Shown piece after piece: positions 4,868-47,011 of a DNA stretch of 64,000 bases. Numbering within the stretch: position 1 is the stretch's first letter; every line of letters starts with the position of its first letter. Made by a program: the position numbers and the translations under genes. The stretch covers positions 495,852 through 559,851 of the forward strand of contig CBDCTA010000029.1 of NCBI GenBank assembly GCA_965221955.1, read 5' to 3'. Origin of the DNA: Gammaproteobacteria bacterium. Lineage in GTDB: Bacteria; Pseudomonadota; Gammaproteobacteria; UBA4575. The notes under the pieces are model-generated. The model was not told the origin of the DNA. It searched no databases and worked only from the letters and a program-made list of their open reading frames with translations.

Positions 4868-5010
4868 GGAAACTTTGATTTATACTGTCATGTTAATTTT
4901 TATGGTCGTTAAATTGATTACTTAAAATGCTCATGTATAGTTAATACACTCCGCTTTCTCGTAATCAATTTGCCTCATCTCAATCATTTCATTAGTAAAT
5001 CAAAGCTTCC
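4868..5010 (+). repeat. Intergenic repeat family, copy D (variant subfamily with tatggtcgttaaa start), upstream of nnr
   Basis: aggaaactttgatttatactgtc...tatggtcgttaaattgattacttaaaatgctcatgtatagttaatacactccgctttctcgtaatcaatttgcctcatctcaatcatttcattagtaaatcaaagcttcc. It ends 8 bp before the nnr ATG. Confidence 0.65.
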
Positions 5011-7068: not shown

Positions 7069-8508
7069 GTGCAGCAGCATTTTCATACTGGTAATCCGTT
7101 AAAAATACAGGCATCAAGATTAGCTCAAATTCTAATCTATTCCATTTCTGTGTTAGTAGGTTCAGTGTTTTTCATGCTGAGCACTTCCAGTTTTGCTGCC
7201 AACAATATTGCTCAAATCAGTGATCTTCGAATTGCCGATCGCAAGACAGAAACACGAATAGTTTTCGATTTAAACGCACCTGTAAAGCACAGTATTTTTG
7301 TACTAAAAAATCCAGACCGTGTAGTGTTGGATATCGGGCAATGCGATGCGAATGGCAAGCTCAAAGTGGGTCGCGTGGGTGGCACACTGGTTAAAGATTT
7401 GCGTTATGCACAAAAGACGAATGAAAAATTACGCGTCGTATTTGATTTAAATTCACCGGTATCCCCAAAAAGCTTTTTGTTGCCACCACAAAGTGGCAAG
7501 GCCTATCGATTAGTCATCGATCTGACTGCGACAACTGCGCTTACAACGGCTCCAAGTGAAACAAAAAAGCCGCACGCTGAACCTGTAGTAGCTATGAAAG
7601 ATGCACCTGTAAGCCGTCGTGATGTCGTCATCGCAATTGATGCAGGTCATGGAGGTAAAGACCCGGGTGCAATTGGTCGTGGAGGCACGCGTGAAAAAGA
7701 TATTGTGCTTTCTATTTCTAAAAGACTTAAAAATCTAATTGATAAAGAACCTGGAATGAAAGCAGTGTTAATTCGAGATCGTGATACTTTTGTTCCGTTA
7801 AGAGGAAGAATTAAAAAAGCCAGCAAGTTAAATGCTGATATTTTTCTTTCTATTCATGCGGATGCTGCAGTAAATCGTCGTGCTAAGGGTTCTTCGGTAT
7901 ATGTGCTATCGCAACATGGTGCAACCAGTGAGGCCGCGCGTATCTTAGCGCAACGCGAAAATGCGTCAGATAAAATTGGTGGGGTTAGCCTAGAAGACAA
8001 AGATGATGTGTTGAAATCGGTATTGGTCGATTTATCACAAACCGCGACCATTGATGCCAGTATCGACTTAGCAGAAGACATTCTTAACGAGCTCGCTAAA
8101 GTTGGAAATATATTACGAGACGAAGTAGAACAAGCGGGTTTTGCAGTGTTGAAATCGCCCGACATTCCATCTGTTTTAGTTGAGACTGCATTTATTTCAA
8201 ACCCTGCAGAAGAAAAGCGTTTAAAAACAACAACGCATCAACAAAAACTTGCTACCGCAATTCTTAAGGGTTTACGTCGTTATGCAAAAGATCATGCTCC
8301 TGCAAATGCAATTTTGGCGAGTGCTCCGACTCCTACACCACTGACTAGATACACCATAAAACGTGGCGATACCTTGTCTGGCATTGCGGTACGTTACAAA
8401 GTCAGCATTAGAGATTTACGCAAAGCGAATGGATTGCGTTCAGATGTACTTAAAGTAGGGCAAGTATTAACCATTCCAACATCACCTATGGTTACTGCTG
8501 GCGCGTAA
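7069..8508 (+). CDS. amiB: N-acetylmuramoyl-L-alanine amidase (AMIN domain + Amidase_3 + C-terminal LysM)
   Basis: 479 aa with a signal/TM N-terminus and an amidase_3 core (AIDAGHGGKDPGA, SIHADA). The C-terminal LysM reads YTIKRGDTLSGIAVRY. The name amiB is assigned by synteny (nnr-tsaE-amiB-mutL); it could equally be called amiC. Confidence 0.85.
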   Translation: MQQHFHTGNPLKIQASRLAQILIYSISVLVGSVFFMLSTSSFAANNIAQISDLRIADRKTETRIVFDLNAPVKHSIFVLKNPDRVVLDIGQCDANGKLKVGRVGGTLVKDLRYAQKTNEKLRVVFDLNSPVSPKSFLLPPQSGKAYRLVIDLTATTALTTAPSETKKPHAEPVVAMKDAPVSRRDVVIAIDAGHGGKDPGAIGRGGTREKDIVLSISKRLKNLIDKEPGMKAVLIRDRDTFVPLRGRIKKASKLNADIFLSIHADAAVNRRAKGSSVYVLSQHGATSEAARILAQRENASDKIGGVSLEDKDDVLKSVLVDLSQTATIDASIDLAEDILNELAKVGNILRDEVEQAGFAVLKSPDIPSVLVETAFISNPAEEKRLKTTTHQQKLATAILKGLRRYAKDHAPANAILASAPTPTPLTRYTIKRGDTLSGIAVRYKVSIRDLRKANGLRSDVLKVGQVLTIPTSPMVTAGA

Positions 8509-8538
8509 TTTAAAAAGTTTGATTTGAAGGGAGAGCTG

Positions 8539-8561
8539 CGCACGGATGCGCAATTATATTG
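8539..8561 (+). terminator. Possible weak terminator after amiB
   Basis: gcgca-cgga-tgcgc hairpin followed by aattatatt. The stem is only 5 bp. Confidence 0.3.
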
Positions 8562-8719
8562 TGAGTCTAGGGGTATGCGAATATGATTCGCAGAGAGGGC
8601 GACCTACAGAGATGTTGGAAGTGCTAGAAAGCAGGATGCAGTTTCTAGTGAGACGCAACTGATTAAAGTCCAGTGATTTTAATTAAGCGCAGGTTGGGGA
8701 GCTCAAAGCATATTTTCAA

Positions 8720-8749
8720 AAAGTCAGCTTTCGGTCAATAGCAGACATT
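8720..8749. promoter_or_regulatory. 30-bp imperfect palindrome motif, copy 1 (aaagtcagc-tttcggtcaata-gcagacatt), 3' of the ECF sigma gene
   Basis: Shares arms (AATGTC/GACATT) and a central core with the copies at 9820 and 10779. In minus orientation it is followed by TTTTT, so it may act as the terminator of the sigma gene. Confidence 0.45.
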
Positions 8750-8763
8750 CAATGTATCACTTA

Positions 8764-9330
8764 CTAGCAACATTGATCCTTATTTAAGCTGTTTTTTTGC
8801 TTATACTCGATCACCTTTCCAAAACGATCCTTTTCAATTTCACAACAAGCTAGAAGTTCTTCTTTTAATTTAATGCGTCCTCGCTGTATACGTGACTTCA
8901 TTCCTGAAACCGAAATACCTATTCGCTCTGCGGCATCAGCTTGCTTAATTTCATTGAAGTCTGCTAATAGCAGAGCTTCCTTGTATTTCGGTTCCAGCTT
9001 GTTTGTAAGTGGTCTCAAACATTTGGCAAATTCACTATCTACGTTGTCAGGCATACTTTCATAATCAGCTATTGTAGTTTCAAGGTCATTAACATCATTT
9101 GATGCATTTATATTCGAGTGTTTTCGGTAATAGTCTGTAATTCTATTTTTGGCAACGATGTAAATCCATGCAAGTGGATTTTCAGCATCAGTTAACGCGC
9201 CCTCATTTTGTAGTACGCTTAAGAGAATGTCGTGTACTAAATCCTCAGATACATCGACATCCACTTTGGTACGAATATACTTGGTTAATAAGGATCGCAA
9301 CTCATCCCAAGTTGTATTTAATTCGGACAT
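8764..9330 (-). CDS. ECF (sigma-70 family, group 4) RNA polymerase sigma factor with a short Cys-pair C-terminal extension
   Basis: 188 aa. Region 2 reads DLVHDILLSV...WIYIVAKNRITDYYRK and the region 4 HTH reads ADFNEIKQADAAERIGISVSGMKSRIQRGR. The roughly 35 aa tail contains two CC pairs (LLACCEI...KDQCC). Confidence 0.8.
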   Translation of the reverse strand: MSELNTTWDELRSLLTKYIRTKVDVDVSEDLVHDILLSVLQNEGALTDAENPLAWIYIVAKNRITDYYRKHSNINASNDVNDLETTIADYESMPDNVDSEFAKCLRPLTNKLEPKYKEALLLADFNEIKQADAAERIGISVSGMKSRIQRGRIKLKEELLACCEIEKDRFGKVIEYKQKNSLNKDQCC

Positions 9331-9735
9331 TTATGCACAACACGCACTTGATTTTGAGGCATTGGCTTCATCGGGATTATCGTTGGTTATGGTGTACCAC
9401 TCCCAATTTAGTCCTTGCGGCTCGGTTGACCACACTTTGTCTTGTGTCGCAAAGCAGCATGTTGTTTGATCTTCAATTTTGTTTGCGATGTCATCACGTT
9501 CGAGTCGCTTTATTACCTCACCCAAATCATCATTTTGATCTACTTCCACTCCAAGATGATTGATTCTGTCATTCGCATTGGGATCTTCAATCAGAACCAG
9601 CTTCAATGGTGGATTATCAATCACAAAGTTTGCGTATCCCTTTCTTCGTTTATGTGGCTTAGTATCGAAGAGTTTTGTGTAATAGCTTACAGCTTCGTCA
9701 ATATTCCTTACGTTTAAGGCTAATTGTAGTCTCAT
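9331..9735 (-). CDS. VOC-family metalloenzyme, ArsI/CadI-like (candidate C-As lyase / metal-induced dioxygenase)
   Basis: 134 aa. The N-terminus MRLQLALNV..LFDTKP.KRRKGYANFVIDNPPLKLVLIE...NHLGVEV matches the ArsI/CadI signature. It has a vicinal Cys pair TTCCFATQDKVW and a C-terminal SACCA. Its stop abuts the sigma start codon (TAA-ATG). Confidence 0.6.
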   Translation of the reverse strand: MRLQLALNVRNIDEAVSYYTKLFDTKPHKRRKGYANFVIDNPPLKLVLIEDPNANDRINHLGVEVDQNDDLGEVIKRLERDDIANKIEDQTTCCFATQDKVWSTEPQGLNWEWYTITNDNPDEANASKSSACCA

Positions 9736-9819
9736 AGTACTTGCTCCAAATTCATTAATTGAGTTAGTAGTAAAAGACGTTTCAAAAAGGAAAAGGACGC
9801 AAAAATTAGTTAACTGGGG

Positions 9820-9849
9820 AATGCCCGCTTTGGGTCGTTAGCGGACATT
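9820..9849. promoter_or_regulatory. 30-bp imperfect palindrome motif, copy 2 (aatgcccgc-tttgggtcgtta-gcggacatt), upstream of the VOC-sigma operon
   Basis: It lies 85 bp upstream of the VOC gene start on the minus strand. Loop/core tttgggtcgtta is identical to copy 3. Confidence 0.5.
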
Positions 9850-9991
9850 TTAAGATTGTAAATTACTGATTCCAACACATTGCGTCCCATAATTTGTCTG
9901 CATTCGGCTCAGAAGTGTCCATTTGCTCGTATCTTGATTGAGTGCTTGTTAGCGACTGTATAACTTATTCAATAATACAATGAGCAATTTC

Positions 9992-10183
9992 TTAGCGTTC
10001 GATTCGAACCTCATCCATCTTGGACATCCTTCTTTTAAGTTCTTTCTCAAGGATATTTCTTGCATACGGTTTCATTCTCTTCCATTTCTCACATTCCTGT
10101 TCAGTTCGACCGCAACCCAGGCACCAGCCTTTGGGTCCTTTGAACTGACACACATCGATACAAGGACTTTTTTGCCGTTTCAC
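9992..10183 (-). CDS. DUF1289 family Cys-rich small protein (putative Fe-S/metal-binding)
   Basis: 63 aa. SPCIDVCQFKG..GWCLGCGRTEQECEKWKRM matches the DUF1289 (YdhL-like) pattern. It has a GTG start. Confidence 0.6.
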   Translation of the reverse strand: MKRQKSPCIDVCQFKGPKGWCLGCGRTEQECEKWKRMKPYARNILEKELKRRMSKMDEVRIER

Positions 10184-10229
10184 TGTTTATTGCACCATTT
10201 AAACGCTTGTGCTTTTTTATCAACTCAAG

Positions 10230-10706
10230 CTAGGTTTGCACTAGACTCAGTGCTTGTTCTATACCTTTTTCCAGCTGTCGAAGTCTGTTGAACTCTTCGA
10301 GTAGCCGTTGTTCCAAATTCTTAAAATTGAGAGGGAGCGTTCTTTTACAAATGCTGTATCCTTCACCGATCTGATAACCCTTCCAATTTTTTATACGATC
10401 GCTTTCTAGGGCTAGAAATTCTTGAATGAATTCCTGCTGTGAAGGGCAATCTTCTTCTGCATGCATACAGATTGGGAAGGCTTTTTGTTTAATTTCTCTG
10501 GCTTCTATGAAAGTTTCAAAATGTATTCCTCCTTGATTATGATTGTGCCAGTTATATTTGTAGAGTTGCAGATAAACACCGCGGTTGTAAATTTCCCAAC
10601 CACTATCAAACCAACTTGATTGATTAATTTTTCTTTCAAGGTTTCGAAAAACTTTTTTTATATCTTTCATGTTTAGGATATTTCTTAATTTAAAGTCGGT
10701 AGACAA
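10230..10706 (-). CDS. Hypothetical protein (158 aa), no recognisable domain
   Basis: Long ORF immediately upstream of the DUF1289 gene on the same strand (46 bp gap). No domain recognised by eye. Confidence 0.45.
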   Translation of the reverse strand: MSTDFKLRNILNMKDIKKVFRNLERKINQSSWFDSGWEIYNRGVYLQLYKYNWHNHNQGGIHFETFIEAREIKQKAFPICMHAEEDCPSQQEFIQEFLALESDRIKNWKGYQIGEGYSICKRTLPLNFKNLEQRLLEEFNRLRQLEKGIEQALSLVQT

Positions 10707-10778
10707 AAGCTAATAGTTACGAAACTTTGATGAAATATGGAAAAGTGCAAATACGAATCTTATTATCATAAATTAATT

Positions 10779-10808
10779 AATGTCTGCTTTGGGTCGTTAG
10801 CGGCCATT
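10779..10808. promoter_or_regulatory. 30-bp imperfect palindrome motif, copy 3 (aatgtctgc-tttgggtcgtta-gcggccatt), between sohB 3' end and the orphan ORF start
   Basis: Same core as copy 2. It overlaps the sohB stop region and lies about 70 bp upstream of the 10706 start. Confidence 0.5.
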
Positions 10809-11833
10809 CAATTAAACAATTTCGAGTCTTGTTCTTTTTGCCACCAAGAAAAAAATAATTTATCTATGGTCATCTGCATGGAGGTTGCAAAACGTTCGCT
10901 GATGGTTTTAGGCACTTCATATTTAATTTCATAAATGTCTGCCTCGTTGCTCGCGTTTAATAAGTAATCGTCACTGGTAATCAGTTCATCTACGAGTTTG
11001 AGCTCAAGTCCGCGTGTGGCAAGCCAATGTTCACCTGTAGCGACTTTATCGATTTCAAGAATAGGACGATTCTCTTTTACAAACTCTTTGAATAAGTCGT
11101 GAGTGTCTTCTAATTGCTCGTTAAAATGCGCACGATCTTCATCGGTGTTTTTACCAAACATGGTGACTGTGCGCTTGAGCTCACCTGCCTTCATCAATTC
11201 AAAGTCCACACCATGCTTATCTAGAAAGCGATTGAAGTTTGGTAATTGTGCTAGTACGCCAATGGAGCCAACGATGGCAAAAGGAGCAGCAATAATTTTG
11301 TCGGCTACGCATGCCATCATATAGCCACCGCTTGCGGCTACCTTGTCGACTGCAACAGTGAGTGGAATACCTTTTTGTTTTATGCGTAAAAGTTGCGAAG
11401 AAGCGAAACCATGTTCATGTACTAATCCGCCAGCATTTTCTAAACAAACCACCACCTCATCTGAGCTATCCGCTACTGATAAAATTGCTGTGATCTCTTT
11501 TCTGAGATGGCGTACAGCAGAAGCTTTTATGTTGCCTAAGAAATTAAGTACAAAAATACGTTTTTTATCTGTATCAGGATGTTTCTTTTCTTTTTTACGT
11601 TCTTTCTTATTTTCTTTTTTTACCTTTTTTAAATCTTTTTTAGATAACAAAGCAAAACGTAGTCGATCAGACATATTCTTATACTTTTTATTTAGATGAG
11701 TGATCTCAAAATGATCATGGCTACGTGCTTTTTTCGAAAAGGAAAATGCCAGCATCATAAGTACCCAAATAAAAATCAGGGCGGTGATTGCCTTGGCAAA
11801 AAATAATCCGTATTCGGTTAAAAATTCGATCAT
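10808..11833 (-). CDS. sohB: Inner-membrane protease SohB (peptidase S49 family)
   Basis: 341 aa. N-terminal TM segment, then a Lys-rich linker and an S49/ClpP-fold region (GGLVHEHG, ASGGYMMAC). Confidence 0.8.
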   Translation of the reverse strand: MIEFLTEYGLFFAKAITALIFIWVLMMLAFSFSKKARSHDHFEITHLNKKYKNMSDRLRFALLSKKDLKKVKKENKKERKKEKKHPDTDKKRIFVLNFLGNIKASAVRHLRKEITAILSVADSSDEVVVCLENAGGLVHEHGFASSQLLRIKQKGIPLTVAVDKVAASGGYMMACVADKIIAAPFAIVGSIGVLAQLPNFNRFLDKHGVDFELMKAGELKRTVTMFGKNTDEDRAHFNEQLEDTHDLFKEFVKENRPILEIDKVATGEHWLATRGLELKLVDELITSDDYLLNASNEADIYEIKYEVPKTISERFATSMQMTIDKLFFSWWQKEQDSKLFN

Positions 11834-11857
11834 GGGCTGATTTCCTAGTTTATTTTG

Positions 11858-12694
11858 TTATTCCTGATATAGGCATTCGTAGCTGCTGAAGAATTGTCCA
11901 TGTGCATTCTCTGAGGAATCATCGTAGAACAACGACTTCAATTGTAATCGGGGTGTGTTTAGAATAGATCCGTCAATAATGGTTCTGAAGATTTCGCTGC
12001 CTAACAATTGATGTGAAGTACTTAAGTAAATTTTGCTGAGTTGTTGATCTTCAACCATGGTATGCAGCATTTTAGGTCCAGCGATTAAATAAAAATGTTT
12101 ATAGTTTTTACGAATAAGTGCATCTATTAAAGGTTTGCCTTCTACCAAACTAGATTCTCCCGTGATGAGCACTTCAAATCCTTCTTCTTGCCACTGCTTA
12201 ATTTTATTTTCATCGGCGTTTTGTCCAGTAGCAATATAAACTTGTTGAGTATTTTCTTTCAGTGATGGATGCATGGGAAAATCGAGGCTAGCGCTTGCAA
12301 TAACCAAGGCTGGATGTGGCGACAATCCTTGTAGCGTTCGCCAGTTATATAAATCTTCACAGTCTCTTTCATCAGGTAGTTGTAGGATATTACCTAGTTT
12401 TTTTTCAGCTAAAGCGCGCATATAACCACCGTGGGTGATTAAACAATCTGCTTGCGCGTGGAGTTCTAAAAATAATCGAAAATCTTCATCACTCGTAAGT
12501 GATTTGGGGAGTTCAGCAGCTTGGATGTTGCTTGAGCTTATGGCGATGCGCCCATCAAGACTGCTTAGAAAATTAGCAACTACAGTAGCTTGTTCTGAGT
12601 TGGATGAATACCAGCCATGTTTGTATAGATATAGATTTTTTAATTCAATTGTTTCAGAGGACTGAGGATAAAGTTGTAAAAGCTTCTTAGCCAT
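11858..12694 (-). CDS. RibD C-terminal-domain-like reductase family protein (dihydrofolate-reductase-like fold)
   Basis: 278 aa. The N-terminal ...VVANFLSSLDGRIA... is typical of RibD_C/YwjB-like reductases. The assignment is moderate. Confidence 0.55.
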   Translation of the reverse strand: MAKKLLQLYPQSSETIELKNLYLYKHGWYSSNSEQATVVANFLSSLDGRIAISSSNIQAAELPKSLTSDEDFRLFLELHAQADCLITHGGYMRALAEKKLGNILQLPDERDCEDLYNWRTLQGLSPHPALVIASASLDFPMHPSLKENTQQVYIATGQNADENKIKQWQEEGFEVLITGESSLVEGKPLIDALIRKNYKHFYLIAGPKMLHTMVEDQQLSKIYLSTSHQLLGSEIFRTIIDGSILNTPRLQLKSLFYDDSSENAHGQFFSSYECLYQE

Positions 12695-12773
12695 AACAGC
12701 TGGATTAAAAATTCTGGGTTATAGGATTGTTATGATTATCATTGGATAATTTTGCATTATCCTAGCACGACCT

Positions 12774-13154
12774 TTGTATAAATTTATGCAAAAACCAAAC
12801 ATTTCCATCGCAATTCCAAAGCAGCGCTATAAGTTTGGCGCATATACGATTGTTGTACTTGAAGAAATTGAATCTAAGGGTGAAATTGAATTCCTCTATT
12901 TGCTTGCAGGTATTAAAGACGGGCACAATGAGCCTGAAATTTACATCACATGTGAAAAAGCACAGCCAGATTCAATTGAAAAAGGCTCTCACATTATTAG
13001 AGTATTTGCCCAACAATTAGACTCCGAGCAATCGGGTAGTGTTATCGATCAATCCAATTCATGGAGCGATCGAGACGCTTTTGTTTCCTATGGTCTTTCG
13101 GGTTTTAAACAGATGTTGGGTTTAGAAGATGAAGAGCCTTATTTATTAGTGTAG
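12774..13154 (+). CDS. Hypothetical protein (126 aa)
   Basis: ORF with no clear SD and no recognisable domain. It is divergent from the reductase gene. Confidence 0.35.
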   Translation: MYKFMQKPNISIAIPKQRYKFGAYTIVVLEEIESKGEIEFLYLLAGIKDGHNEPEIYITCEKAQPDSIEKGSHIIRVFAQQLDSEQSGSVIDQSNSWSDRDAFVSYGLSGFKQMLGLEDEEPYLLV

Positions 13155-13163
13155 CCAACTATT

Positions 13164-46617: not shown

Positions 46618-46694
46618 TGGCGCCCCGAGTAGGAGTCGAACCTACGACCTCTCCCTTAGGAGGGGAGCGCTCTATCCAGCTGAGCTATCGGGGC
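46618..46694 (-). tRNA. tRNA-Arg (anticodon CCT)
   Basis: 77 nt cloverleaf read by hand: GCCCCGA acceptor, anticodon loop CTCCTAA, T-arm GTAGGTTCGACTCCTAC, encoded CCA. Confidence 0.85.
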
Positions 46695-46924: not shown

Positions 46925-47011
46925 TGGTGCCGAGGGAGAGAATCGAACTCTCACTATGTTTCCATAACCGGATTTTGAATCCGGCGCGTCTACCAGTTCC
47001 GCCACCCCGGC
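46925..47011 (-). tRNA. tRNA-Leu (anticodon CAA)
   Basis: 87 nt class II tRNA: GCCGGGG acceptor, anticodon loop TTCAAAA, long variable arm, GTTCGATTC T-loop, encoded CCA. Confidence 0.85.

Follow-up and report, generated by a model that had tools for sequence, protein, structure and literature searches.

Genes for an enzyme of the ArsI/CadI family and for a cysteine-tailed sigma factor lie end to end on the minus strand of a 64,000-nucleotide (64-kb) stretch of DNA from a gammaproteobacterium (lineage UBA4575; assembly GCA_965221955.1, contig CBDCTA010000029.1, positions 495,852 to 559,851), referred to here in its entirety as the window. The upstream gene encodes a vicinal oxygen chelate (VOC) metalloenzyme, and the downstream gene encodes a SigZ-like extracytoplasmic function (ECF) sigma factor (Table 1). 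A preliminary description of this DNA, made from the sequence alone, had placed the stop codon of the first gene directly before the ATG of the second, and both open reading frames (ORFs) were found at exactly those limits. The four peptides that it quoted were likewise located: QTTCCFATQDKVWS (Cys93-Cys94) and SACCA (Cys131-Cys132) in the VOC protein, and ELLACCEI (Cys162-Cys163) and KDQCC (Cys187-Cys188) in the sigma factor. A Shine-Dalgarno element precedes the VOC gene, and no separate one is evident before the sigma ATG; for this reason, and given the TAAATG junction, which is compatible with such an arrangement, the two genes look translationally coupled.

Table 1. Features in and around the VOC-sigma module; positions are those of the window.
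Feature	Position	Strand	Details
ArsI/CadI-family VOC metalloenzyme gene	9735..9331	minus	134 aa; stop TAA at 9333-9331
SigZ-like ECF sigma gene	9330..8764	minus	188 aa; ATG 9330-9328, stop TAG 8766-8764
TAAATG junction	9328..9333	minus	VOC stop (9333-9331) abuts sigma ATG (9330-9328); contiguous, in frame
Shine-Dalgarno GGAG	9744..9747	minus	8 nt 5' of VOC start codon; read from sequence
Putative ECF-type promoter TGCGTCCTTTTCCTTTTTGAAACGTC	9776..9801	minus	-35 TGCGTC 9801-9796, -10 core CGTC 9779-9776, 16-nt spacer
Linker Cys104 of sigma	codon 9021-9019	minus	context AKCLRP, sigma2-sigma4 linker
Cys-bearing C-terminal extension of sigma	8767..8865	minus	residues 156-188, 33 aa beyond Sigma70_r4_2
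Sigma Cys162-Cys163	8847-8842	minus	end of last sigma4 helix
Sigma Cys187-Cys188	8772-8767	minus	flexible C-terminal end
Repeat copy ATGTCCGCTAACGACCCAAAGC	9827..9848	minus	hairpin -13.5 kcal/mol; 25 nt upstream of -35 element
Repeat copy	8727..8748	minus	15 nt after sigma stop codon, then TTTTTG
Repeat copy	10786-10807	minus	third copy in the window
DUF1289 gene	9992-10183	minus	small protein with four Cys
ORF158	10230-10706	minus	158 aa; no Pfam or NCBIfam match

The VOC protein scores 177.9 bits over residues 2-133 on the NCBIfam model NF041414 (ArsI_CadI_VOC; cutoff 116) and also matches Pfam Glyoxalase, which bears out the family assignment made earlier from the sequence alone. Residues 2-119 align with crystal structures of Thermomonospora curvata ArsI (TcArsI; 5c4p and others) at an E value of 4e-32. 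On this alignment, the Fe(II) ligands Gln8, His65 and Glu117 of TcArsI are matched by Gln4, His60 and Glu112, its organoarsenical-binding Cys98-Cys99 by Cys93-Cys94 (codons 9459-9454), and its catalytic Lys105 by Lys100 (residue roles in ArsI: PMC6138428, PMC12607644). The iron triad and the conserved Cys pair are thus both present, and the first pair does correspond to the Cys-Cys that binds trivalent methylarsenical, MAs(III), in ArsI, as the preliminary description had it. A further vicinal pair, Cys131-Cys132, stands at the C-terminus. Since the triad, the Cys-Cys pair and the Lys are all kept, the protein has everything known to be required for carbon-arsenic (C-As) lyase chemistry, and this activity is predicted for it.

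Conservation of these residues was followed in an alignment of 32 VOC proteins, almost all of which adjoin related sigma genes. All 32 have His60 and Lys100; Cys93, Cys94 and Glu112 are each lost from a single member, a copy broken by an insertion (locus L010), and kept in the other 31. Position 4 is either Gln or His, both of which are ligands known from characterised ArsI proteins, and nearly all members carry the further C-terminal Cys-Cys. The broken copy, from a Rhodospirillaceae metagenome-assembled genome (4754-5966), has its VOC gene in two pieces about 840 nt apart, probably through insertional disruption, and keeps the promoter described below.

ECF sigma factors of group ECF238, which merges the former groups ECF24 and ECF44, carry a short Cys-rich C-terminal extension, often a linker Cys, and no anti-sigma factor; CorE2, activated by Cd and Zn, and the orphan SigZ are its characterised members (PMC7826278). 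The window sigma consists of Sigma70_r2 (PF04542, residues 12-72) and Sigma70_r4_2 (PF08281, residues 106-155) only and reaches 63.9 bits on TIGR02937 (cutoff 42.9), in keeping with the minimal group-4 sigma with two Cys pairs in its tail that had been proposed. Two SigZ models are by a wide margin its best matches in NCBIfam and are matched over their full length, tail included. It has five cysteines, at positions 104, 162, 163, 187 and 188, of which the last four lie in the C-terminal extension.

A resemblance to CorE-type (ECF44-like) sigmas had also been suggested, and it stands in part: the Cys-rich tail, the linker Cys and the lack of an anti-sigma are common to both. Membership of that type was rejected, as the CxC linker motif by which it is defined (PMC4937300) is missing (a single Cys104 is found in its place). 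The CorE-type C-terminal domain comprises 28-38 aa with six Cys, whereas the tail of the window sigma, at about 27-33 aa, has four Cys in two vicinal pairs. Without the CxC motif and the six-Cys domain, the protein is best filed as SigZ-like, from the former ECF24 part of ECF238, and CorE serves at most as an analogy.

Relatives of the sigma were collected by a degenerate-pattern scan with one genome per species, which yielded at least 593 confirmed members; the best-scoring 80 loci were kept for analysis, with simple ORF calling in these foreign loci. An independent, exhaustive profile search for the family returned 1,504 clusters at 50% identity (E <= 1e-30). The Cys-Cys that follows sigma4 is present in 84/84 of the loci-derived sigmas and in 127/130 representatives from the profile search, and the linker Cys in approximately 75 of the 84. 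Down to about 55% identity, nearly every orthologue retains the terminal Cys-Cys, with CxC or Cx2-4C in its place in distant relatives, and the tail as a whole follows the conserved motif CCxIExDRxGxxxxY...C(x)C. The tail cysteines are therefore conserved, the first pair family-wide and the terminal pair in nearly all close orthologues. An AlphaFold2 model built from a 95-sequence alignment (mean predicted local distance difference test score, pLDDT, 74.7; 76, 72 and 57 for the blocks of the tail) gives the tail a predicted beta-hairpin (163-167 and 173-178) and, beyond it, a flexible end that carries cysteines. A Foldseek search of the PDB with this model retrieved generic ECF sigmas only, none of which includes the tail among its solved parts; hence, no solved structure with such a tail was found.

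The preliminary description had proposed to look for a sigma-dependent promoter upstream of position 9735, and a conserved ECF-type site is located there (TTTGCGTCCTTTT-N-CGTCT), ending 40 nt upstream of the VOC ATG. It is the sole exact match to the motif in the window (0.16 expected), and on a position weight matrix trained on the other loci it scores 30.9, compared to 7.2 for the next best site (training range 14.9-41.6). Of 29 VOC-sigma loci, which come from about ten phyla, 28 carry the element TGCGTC(C/T)TTT...CGTC at a distance of 59-106 nt before the VOC start codon, and the 29th has a variant with one base changed. When relaxed to TGCRTC-N15-17-CGTC, the pattern gave 133 matches across 86 loci versus 10.8 in shuffled sequences, a 12-fold excess. 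The T-rich extension, which was not part of this search pattern, accompanies 106 of the 133 matches, and 89 of 103 sites have a 16-nt spacer. In 14 loci in which the sigma opens the operon, the motif stands before the sigma gene itself. A motif that co-occurs strictly with the sigma across phyla and also stands before the operon of the sigma itself, as here, is what usually marks an ECF sigma as autoregulated. The window sigma presumably recognises the site in front of its own operon. A scan of positions 8400-10900 for sigma-70 promoters and terminators stayed at background level.

An ArsI/CadI VOC gene adjoins the sigma in 27 of the 80 best SigZ-like loci, mostly directly upstream and on the same strand, and at this frequency the adjacency is not due to chance. 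In one locus (L078) the VOC gene is divergent from the sigma, and in three others (L071, L077 and the disrupted L010) it lies 0.6-1.2 kb off. Going by record titles, carriers of the pair belong to the Gemmatimonadota, Alpha- and Gammaproteobacteria, Nitrospirota, Planctomycetota, Latescibacterota, Binatia, Actinomycetota, Acidobacteriota and Bacillota. Cultured examples are Novipirellula rosea JCM 17759 (L072) and Paenibacillus sp. LjRoot153 (L077), and a sigma-ArsM pairing is present in Aquimarina sp. Aq78 and Cohnella laeviribosi DSM 21336. The distance from VOC stop to sigma start is 0 in the clade of the window sigma and an overlap (-8 or -4) or 1-64 nt in most others. Close relatives (L081, L083 and L085; sigmas 74-77% and 55% identical) have the same 134-aa VOC and the same TAAATG junction at other chromosomal sites, next to groEL/ampD or an ArsR-AHSA1 pair. 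A neighbour-joining tree places the window sigma in a clade of 23, every member of which has a VOC partner, and VOC partners are also found in at least four other parts of the tree.

No anti-sigma gene is adjacent to the window sigma, as had been stated at the outset, and none is fused to it; its neighbouring ORFs encode the VOC protein, a DUF1289 protein and a protein without family match. Among 126 ORFs flanking 26 VOC-sigma pairs, no Pfam family occurs more than four times, and no anti-sigma domain, ArsR or arsenite transporter recurs.

Genes other than arsI are also found behind the same promoter. The motif fronts an ArsI/CadI VOC in 27 of the 80 loci, an arsenite methyltransferase ArsM in 20 (three representatives score 326-369 bits on NF008823; cutoff 263) and DUF2703 thioredoxin-fold proteins in 19. 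DUF2703 genes are known from actinobacterial ars clusters and are arsenate-induced in Rhodococcus (PMC6514093). Further genes behind the motif encode an ArsP_1 permease, a YHS-domain P-type ATPase (L009), GshA, a glutathione S-transferase (GST), Cys-rich peptides and the sigma itself. ArsI or ArsM is present in 47/80 loci, and at least one of ArsI, ArsM, DUF2703 protein or Cys-rich peptide in 69/80.

Sigmas of Bacillales that lie above both SigZ cutoffs have the same CC...C tail and TGCGTC-N16-CGTC promoter and adjoin genes for ArsM, ArsI or Cys-rich peptides. Plasmid-borne members include one from Rhodococcus opacus, with the motif before itself and before a 58-aa Cys-rich peptide, and one from Hymenobacter located 2 kb from arsC-acr3. 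On a Priestia megaterium plasmid (NZ_CP071475.1, L167), the motif at 4948 (-) points from an annotated SigZ toward a divergent aldo/keto reductase gene, and such a reductase may be the long-sought target of Bacillus-type SigZ. In B. subtilis, sigZ likewise adjoins an aldo/keto reductase gene, yrpG.

The Cys-rich peptides behind the promoter are 55-71 aa long with up to ~30% Cys (for example MENNNSCCNDSNCCNSGQSSTSCCN) and come from Bacteroidota, Bacillota, Ignavibacteria and the Rhodococcus plasmid (L066 6666, L074 6546, L020 5652, L048 4658, L017 5605(-), L026 5501(-), L077 6560 and L166 5697-5873(-)). Two representatives that were scanned had no Pfam match; these peptides are candidate metallothionein-like buffers of arsenic or other metals.

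Some loci display a wider set of motif-borne genes. A Verrucomicrobiota contig (L046) has four motif copies within 6 kb (1558, 2852, 5122 and 6649), one each before genes for an aminotransferase, a secreted DUF2703 protein, a GST-like protein and ArsM, and looks like a larger local regulon. In Photobacterium sp. S4TG1 (L073, 6567 onward), the promoter directly precedes the glutamate-cysteine ligase gene gshA; in L081 and L083, gshA lies about 1.5 kb downstream of the sigma, without the motif. These placements hint at a link between the sigma family and glutathione supply. Taken across the SigZ-like loci, the family theme appears to be thiol-reactive toxicants, with arsenic the dominant case.

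The same enzyme can be viewed from the opposite side. A metagenome scan seeded with the window VOC gathered 80 loci with VOCs 47-81% identical; it is biased by its seed words (mainly CCFATQDK) and under-samples sigma-linked VOCs of the CCHATQ type. An ArsR-like neighbour is present in at least 22 of these 80 loci. A sigma was found in 1 of the 62 with at least 450 nt of downstream sequence (that VOC being 81% identical), and the promoter motif in 2 of the 72 with enough upstream sequence. One such locus (L090, 1982-4549) has the classical layout, comprising a divergent ArsR with an N-terminal Cys-Cys, a 59%-identical VOC that ends in Cys-Cys, and a downstream ArsP-like permease starting MSSHCCH. 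Sampled from the enzyme side, ArsI/CadI genes are thus mostly ArsR-linked, in line with the ArsR/SmtB control that the preliminary description gave as normal. Its remark that a sigma-coupled arrangement would be unusual is right when set against ArsR control; with recurrences in about ten phyla, the arrangement is not rare. Between amiB and sohB, the window contains no HTH_5 or HTH_20 gene. By gene order, this enzyme appears to come in two layouts, the ordinary one with ArsR and, as its alternative, the one with the sigma, and at the window locus the sigma seems to replace ArsR. The nearest sigma-less VOC relatives examined are ArsR-linked, with which a swap of regulators around a common enzyme would fit.

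These data suggest that the module is a self-contained, positively autoregulated two-gene detoxification unit in which the sigma senses a trivalent arsenical through its cysteines, a reading to which we assign a probability of roughly 0.55. The SigZ-like sigma would guide RNA polymerase to the TGCGTCC-N16-CGTC promoter at 9801..9776, yielding one transcript with the ArsI-type Fe(II)-dependent C-As lyase first and the sigma second. With no anti-sigma, activity would be set by the sigma's own cysteines, namely linker Cys104, Cys162-Cys163 and Cys187-Cys188. These would take up a trivalent arsenical (As(III) or methyl- or aryl-As(III)) or, more generally, any thiol-reactive soft metal(loid), and ligand binding would move the sigma into a transcription-competent conformation. 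Upon induction, more enzyme would clear the organoarsenical and more sigma would amplify the response, so that in this lineage the sigma would fill the role that ArsR/SmtB repressors have for arsI/cadI.

We infer that sensing takes place at the sigma cysteines and that they bind an arsenical. The minimal conserved Cys set of the sigma, the linker Cys plus one vicinal pair, amounts to three thiols, and As(III) sites in ArsR proteins use three thiols. Both ArsI and the ArsR proteins selective for MAs(III) bind it through vicinal Cys pairs (PMC6514093). Direct activation by metal through a C-terminal Cys-rich domain, with no anti-sigma, is established for CorE and CorE2 of ECF238 (PMC4937300, PMC6851896, PMC7826278).

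Several observations weigh against the arsenical-sensing reading. CadI, the second protein after which the enzyme family is named, is induced by cadmium and has no known function. Arsenic cannot be taken as the ligand from the enzyme alone. Some SigZ-like sigmas drive non-arsenic genes (the aldo/keto reductase of the Priestia plasmid, gshA in Photobacterium and the P-type ATPase in L009); the family-level signal may for this reason be general thiol-reactive stress. The window sigma falls below the equivalog cutoffs of both SigZ models (148.6 bits versus 212 and 144.7 versus 168.65); relatives from the same search set exceed both. Seven VOC-linked sigmas of Gemmatimonadota lack the distal Cys pair, which is therefore not universal, and the AlphaFold2 model, with a predicted template modelling score of 0.45, is of moderate confidence. 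The 80 sigma loci, being the best-scoring ones, do not constitute a random sample. The CxC linker motif that is essential in CorE2 (PMC4937300) is absent, and ECF238 promoters have been reported as not conserved and the group, SigZ included, as not autoregulated (bioRxiv 10.1101/2019.12.11.873521 supplement).

The strongest competitor retains the architecture and exchanges the ligand for a soft divalent metal (Cd, Zn, Cu or Hg), which would make the VOC protein a CadI-type cadmium-stress protein and not a C-As lyase. CorE2, from the same ECF group, senses Cd and Zn by its Cys-rich domain (PMC4937300), the NCBIfam family is named 'ArsI/CadI heavy metal resistance metalloenzyme', and some relatives drive the YHS-domain P-type ATPase of L009 or metallothionein-like Cys-rich peptides. 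The commonest partners are nevertheless arsenic-specific, namely ArsI, in which the C-As lyase site is complete, and ArsM, which scores above its cutoff, and the CxC motif that CorE2 requires is lacking from the window sigma. Moreover, one changed Cys in the Cys-rich domain of CorE2 shifts its metal specificity (PMC4937300), from which it can be argued that a different Cys layout implies a different ligand. We consider a divalent-metal sensor distinctly less probable than an arsenical one.

Somewhat further down the scale stands a redox or electrophile switch, in which disulfide formation or S-alkylation of the sigma cysteines would report general thiol-depleting stress and the VOC would be one lineage-specific output. 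Vicinal thiols are typical targets of oxidants and electrophiles, and family members drive gshA, GST, DUF2703 thioredoxin-fold proteins and an aldo/keto reductase. The arsenic model accommodates these thiol-related partners as well, since arsenicals too deplete thiols. A general stress switch is harder to reconcile with the presence of the substrate-specific arsenic enzymes ArsI and ArsM in 47/80 loci, or with the only strong promoter site in the window fronting ArsI; we regard it as unlikely.

That the VOC protein acts as an anti-sigma or co-sensor, instead of or besides being an effector, holding or releasing the sigma by Cys-arsenical-Cys bridges that join its C-terminal Cys-Cys to the tail of the sigma, is improbable. 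The tight 1:1 coupling through TAAATG is typical of sigma/anti-sigma pairs, nearly all sigma-linked VOCs retain a C-terminal Cys-Cys beyond the catalytic core, and the ArsM, DUF2703 and small-peptide partners also have Cys-rich termini. A glyoxalase-domain protein is, furthermore, listed as the putative anti-sigma of ECF125 (ECF classification 2.0 preprint supplement). Against this, sigmas of this family that share the tail and the promoter are paired with unrelated proteins or stand first in their operons, so no single partner fold can be a required anti-sigma. The ArsR-linked VOC of L090 has the same C-terminal Cys-Cys, and every catalytic residue is kept in the window VOC. A chance juxtaposition of genes with functionless cysteines and upstream motif can practically be discarded, given the pair in 27/80 loci from about ten phyla with a conserved promoter, a motif 12-fold over shuffles and a Cys-Cys in 127/130 representatives.

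The VOC-sigma module of the window sits in a block of ~4.6 kb (8509-13163) that splits the classical nnr-tsaE-amiB / mutL-miaA cluster between amiB and mutL. On the minus strand the block holds the sigma and VOC genes, the DUF1289 gene, ORF158, sohB and a RibD_C-like gene, and it also contains a 126-aa plus-strand ORF without family match. The DUF1289 gene lies just upstream of the module, ORF158 likewise upstream, and neither recurs beside related sigmas. Rfam identified only two tRNAs in the whole window (46621-46694 and 46928-47011 (-)), with no riboswitch or leader near the module.

A repeat of ~30 nt (core TGTCCGCTAACGACCCAAAGC) is present as three direct copies on the minus strand and nowhere else in the 64 kb. 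The copies bracket, in turn, ORF158 with the DUF1289 gene and the promoter with the VOC and sigma genes. Good folding was found in the middle copy only, and the loop is better conserved than the stem. Relatives L081-L084 likewise have the repeat upstream of the VOC promoter (L081 7420-7440; L083 7485-7505), with the pair at another chromosomal site, and the repeat appears to be associated with the VOC-sigma cassette. It could be a cassette boundary, a repetitive extragenic palindromic (REP)-like element or a protein-binding site, and the copy that follows the sigma gene may act as a weak terminator or mark the edge of a cassette. The flanking repeats were also considered as possible parts of an integron cassette.

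Both protein families are known, as is direct sensing by a Cys-rich sigma tail in CorE and CorE2. The coupling of SigZ-like sigmas to arsI, arsM or DUF2703 genes, the phylum-spanning promoter and the autoregulation that it implies were not found described in the available literature, and no report linking arsM, an ECF sigma and arsenic was found. Two name matches were set aside: the 'ArsI' of a sigma-factor paper is an unrelated Streptomyces anti-anti-sigma that shares only the name, and 'CadI' in a Sinorhizobium ECF paper is a false text match.

A broader proposal, for which the odds fall a little short of even, is that SigZ-type sigmas at large (at least ~1,500 clusters at 50% identity) are phylum-spanning, anti-sigma-free sensors of arsenicals or thiol toxicants that read a universal TGCGTCC-N16-CGTC promoter and act as one-protein activators of arsI, arsM, DUF2703 genes and Cys-rich peptides that buffer arsenic. 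The Cys-rich termini of the partners might swap arsenical with the sigma tail, giving built-in negative feedback. Arsenic resistance genes are the textbook case of ArsR-type de-repression. If the proposal is true, a further regulatory solution for arsenic resistance would stand beside ArsR/SmtB, and a sigma that both senses the toxicant and amplifies itself would place the same enzymes under a different control logic. The long-orphan SigZ family would acquire a function, and SigZ, among the last Bacillus ECF sigmas without a known signal, gains a concrete and testable hypothesis. The module is spread over many environmental phyla, among them lineages that matter for the methylation and demethylation of arsenic in soil and ocean. 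It is compact, made up of one sigma, one promoter and one output, is apparently orthogonal, and could be used as a component of arsenical biosensors. The description of ECF238 as lacking a conserved promoter or gene context, apart from a permease and a thioredoxin-like protein in one subgroup (bioRxiv 10.1101/2019.12.11.873521 supplement), would need correction.

Among known systems, CorE and CorE2 of Myxococcus xanthus share with the window sigma a minimal ECF architecture, a short Cys-rich C-terminal extension, a linker Cys and the lack of an anti-sigma (PMC4937300, PMC6851896, PMC8999054). By analogy, the proposed logic, in which a thiophilic ligand is bound directly by the sigma, would also be the same. 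The differences are that the window sigma has one linker Cys and four tail Cys in two pairs, whereas CorE-like sigmas have the CxC motif and six Cys within 28-38 aa; that its own operon is preceded by a conserved promoter, while corE genes are described as not fully autoregulated; and that its partners are arsenic enzymes in place of Cu, Cd and Zn efflux genes.

The SigZ of B. subtilis (ECF238 subgroup 9) is nearest by profile, as SigZ models match the window sigma best, yet the latter scores below their equivalog cutoffs; the B. subtilis protein has no known signal or regulon and is reported not to be autoregulated (bioRxiv 10.1101/2019.12.11.873521 supplement). In the SigZ of the Priestia plasmid, the motif precedes an aldo/keto reductase gene and not an arsenic gene as in the window. 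ECF125 shares with the window pair the genetic coupling of an ECF sigma to a protein of the VOC/glyoxalase fold (ECF classification 2.0 preprint supplement). The ECF125 protein is long and multidomain, follows the sigma (+1) and is proposed to be an anti-sigma, whereas the window VOC is a single-domain ArsI encoded before a sigma of a different ECF group.

The ArsR-controlled arsI genes of Bacillus sp. MD1, T. curvata and Rhodococcus, and the CmtR/ArsR-linked mycobacterial cadI, encode the same enzyme family with the same active site as the window VOC. The ArsR-arsI operons and the window module are also alike in logic, with a thiol-based sensor set over one detoxifying enzyme. The former employ a divergent or upstream ArsR/SmtB repressor and act by de-repression, while the latter would rely on an activating sigma, encoded downstream on the same transcript, with positive feedback.

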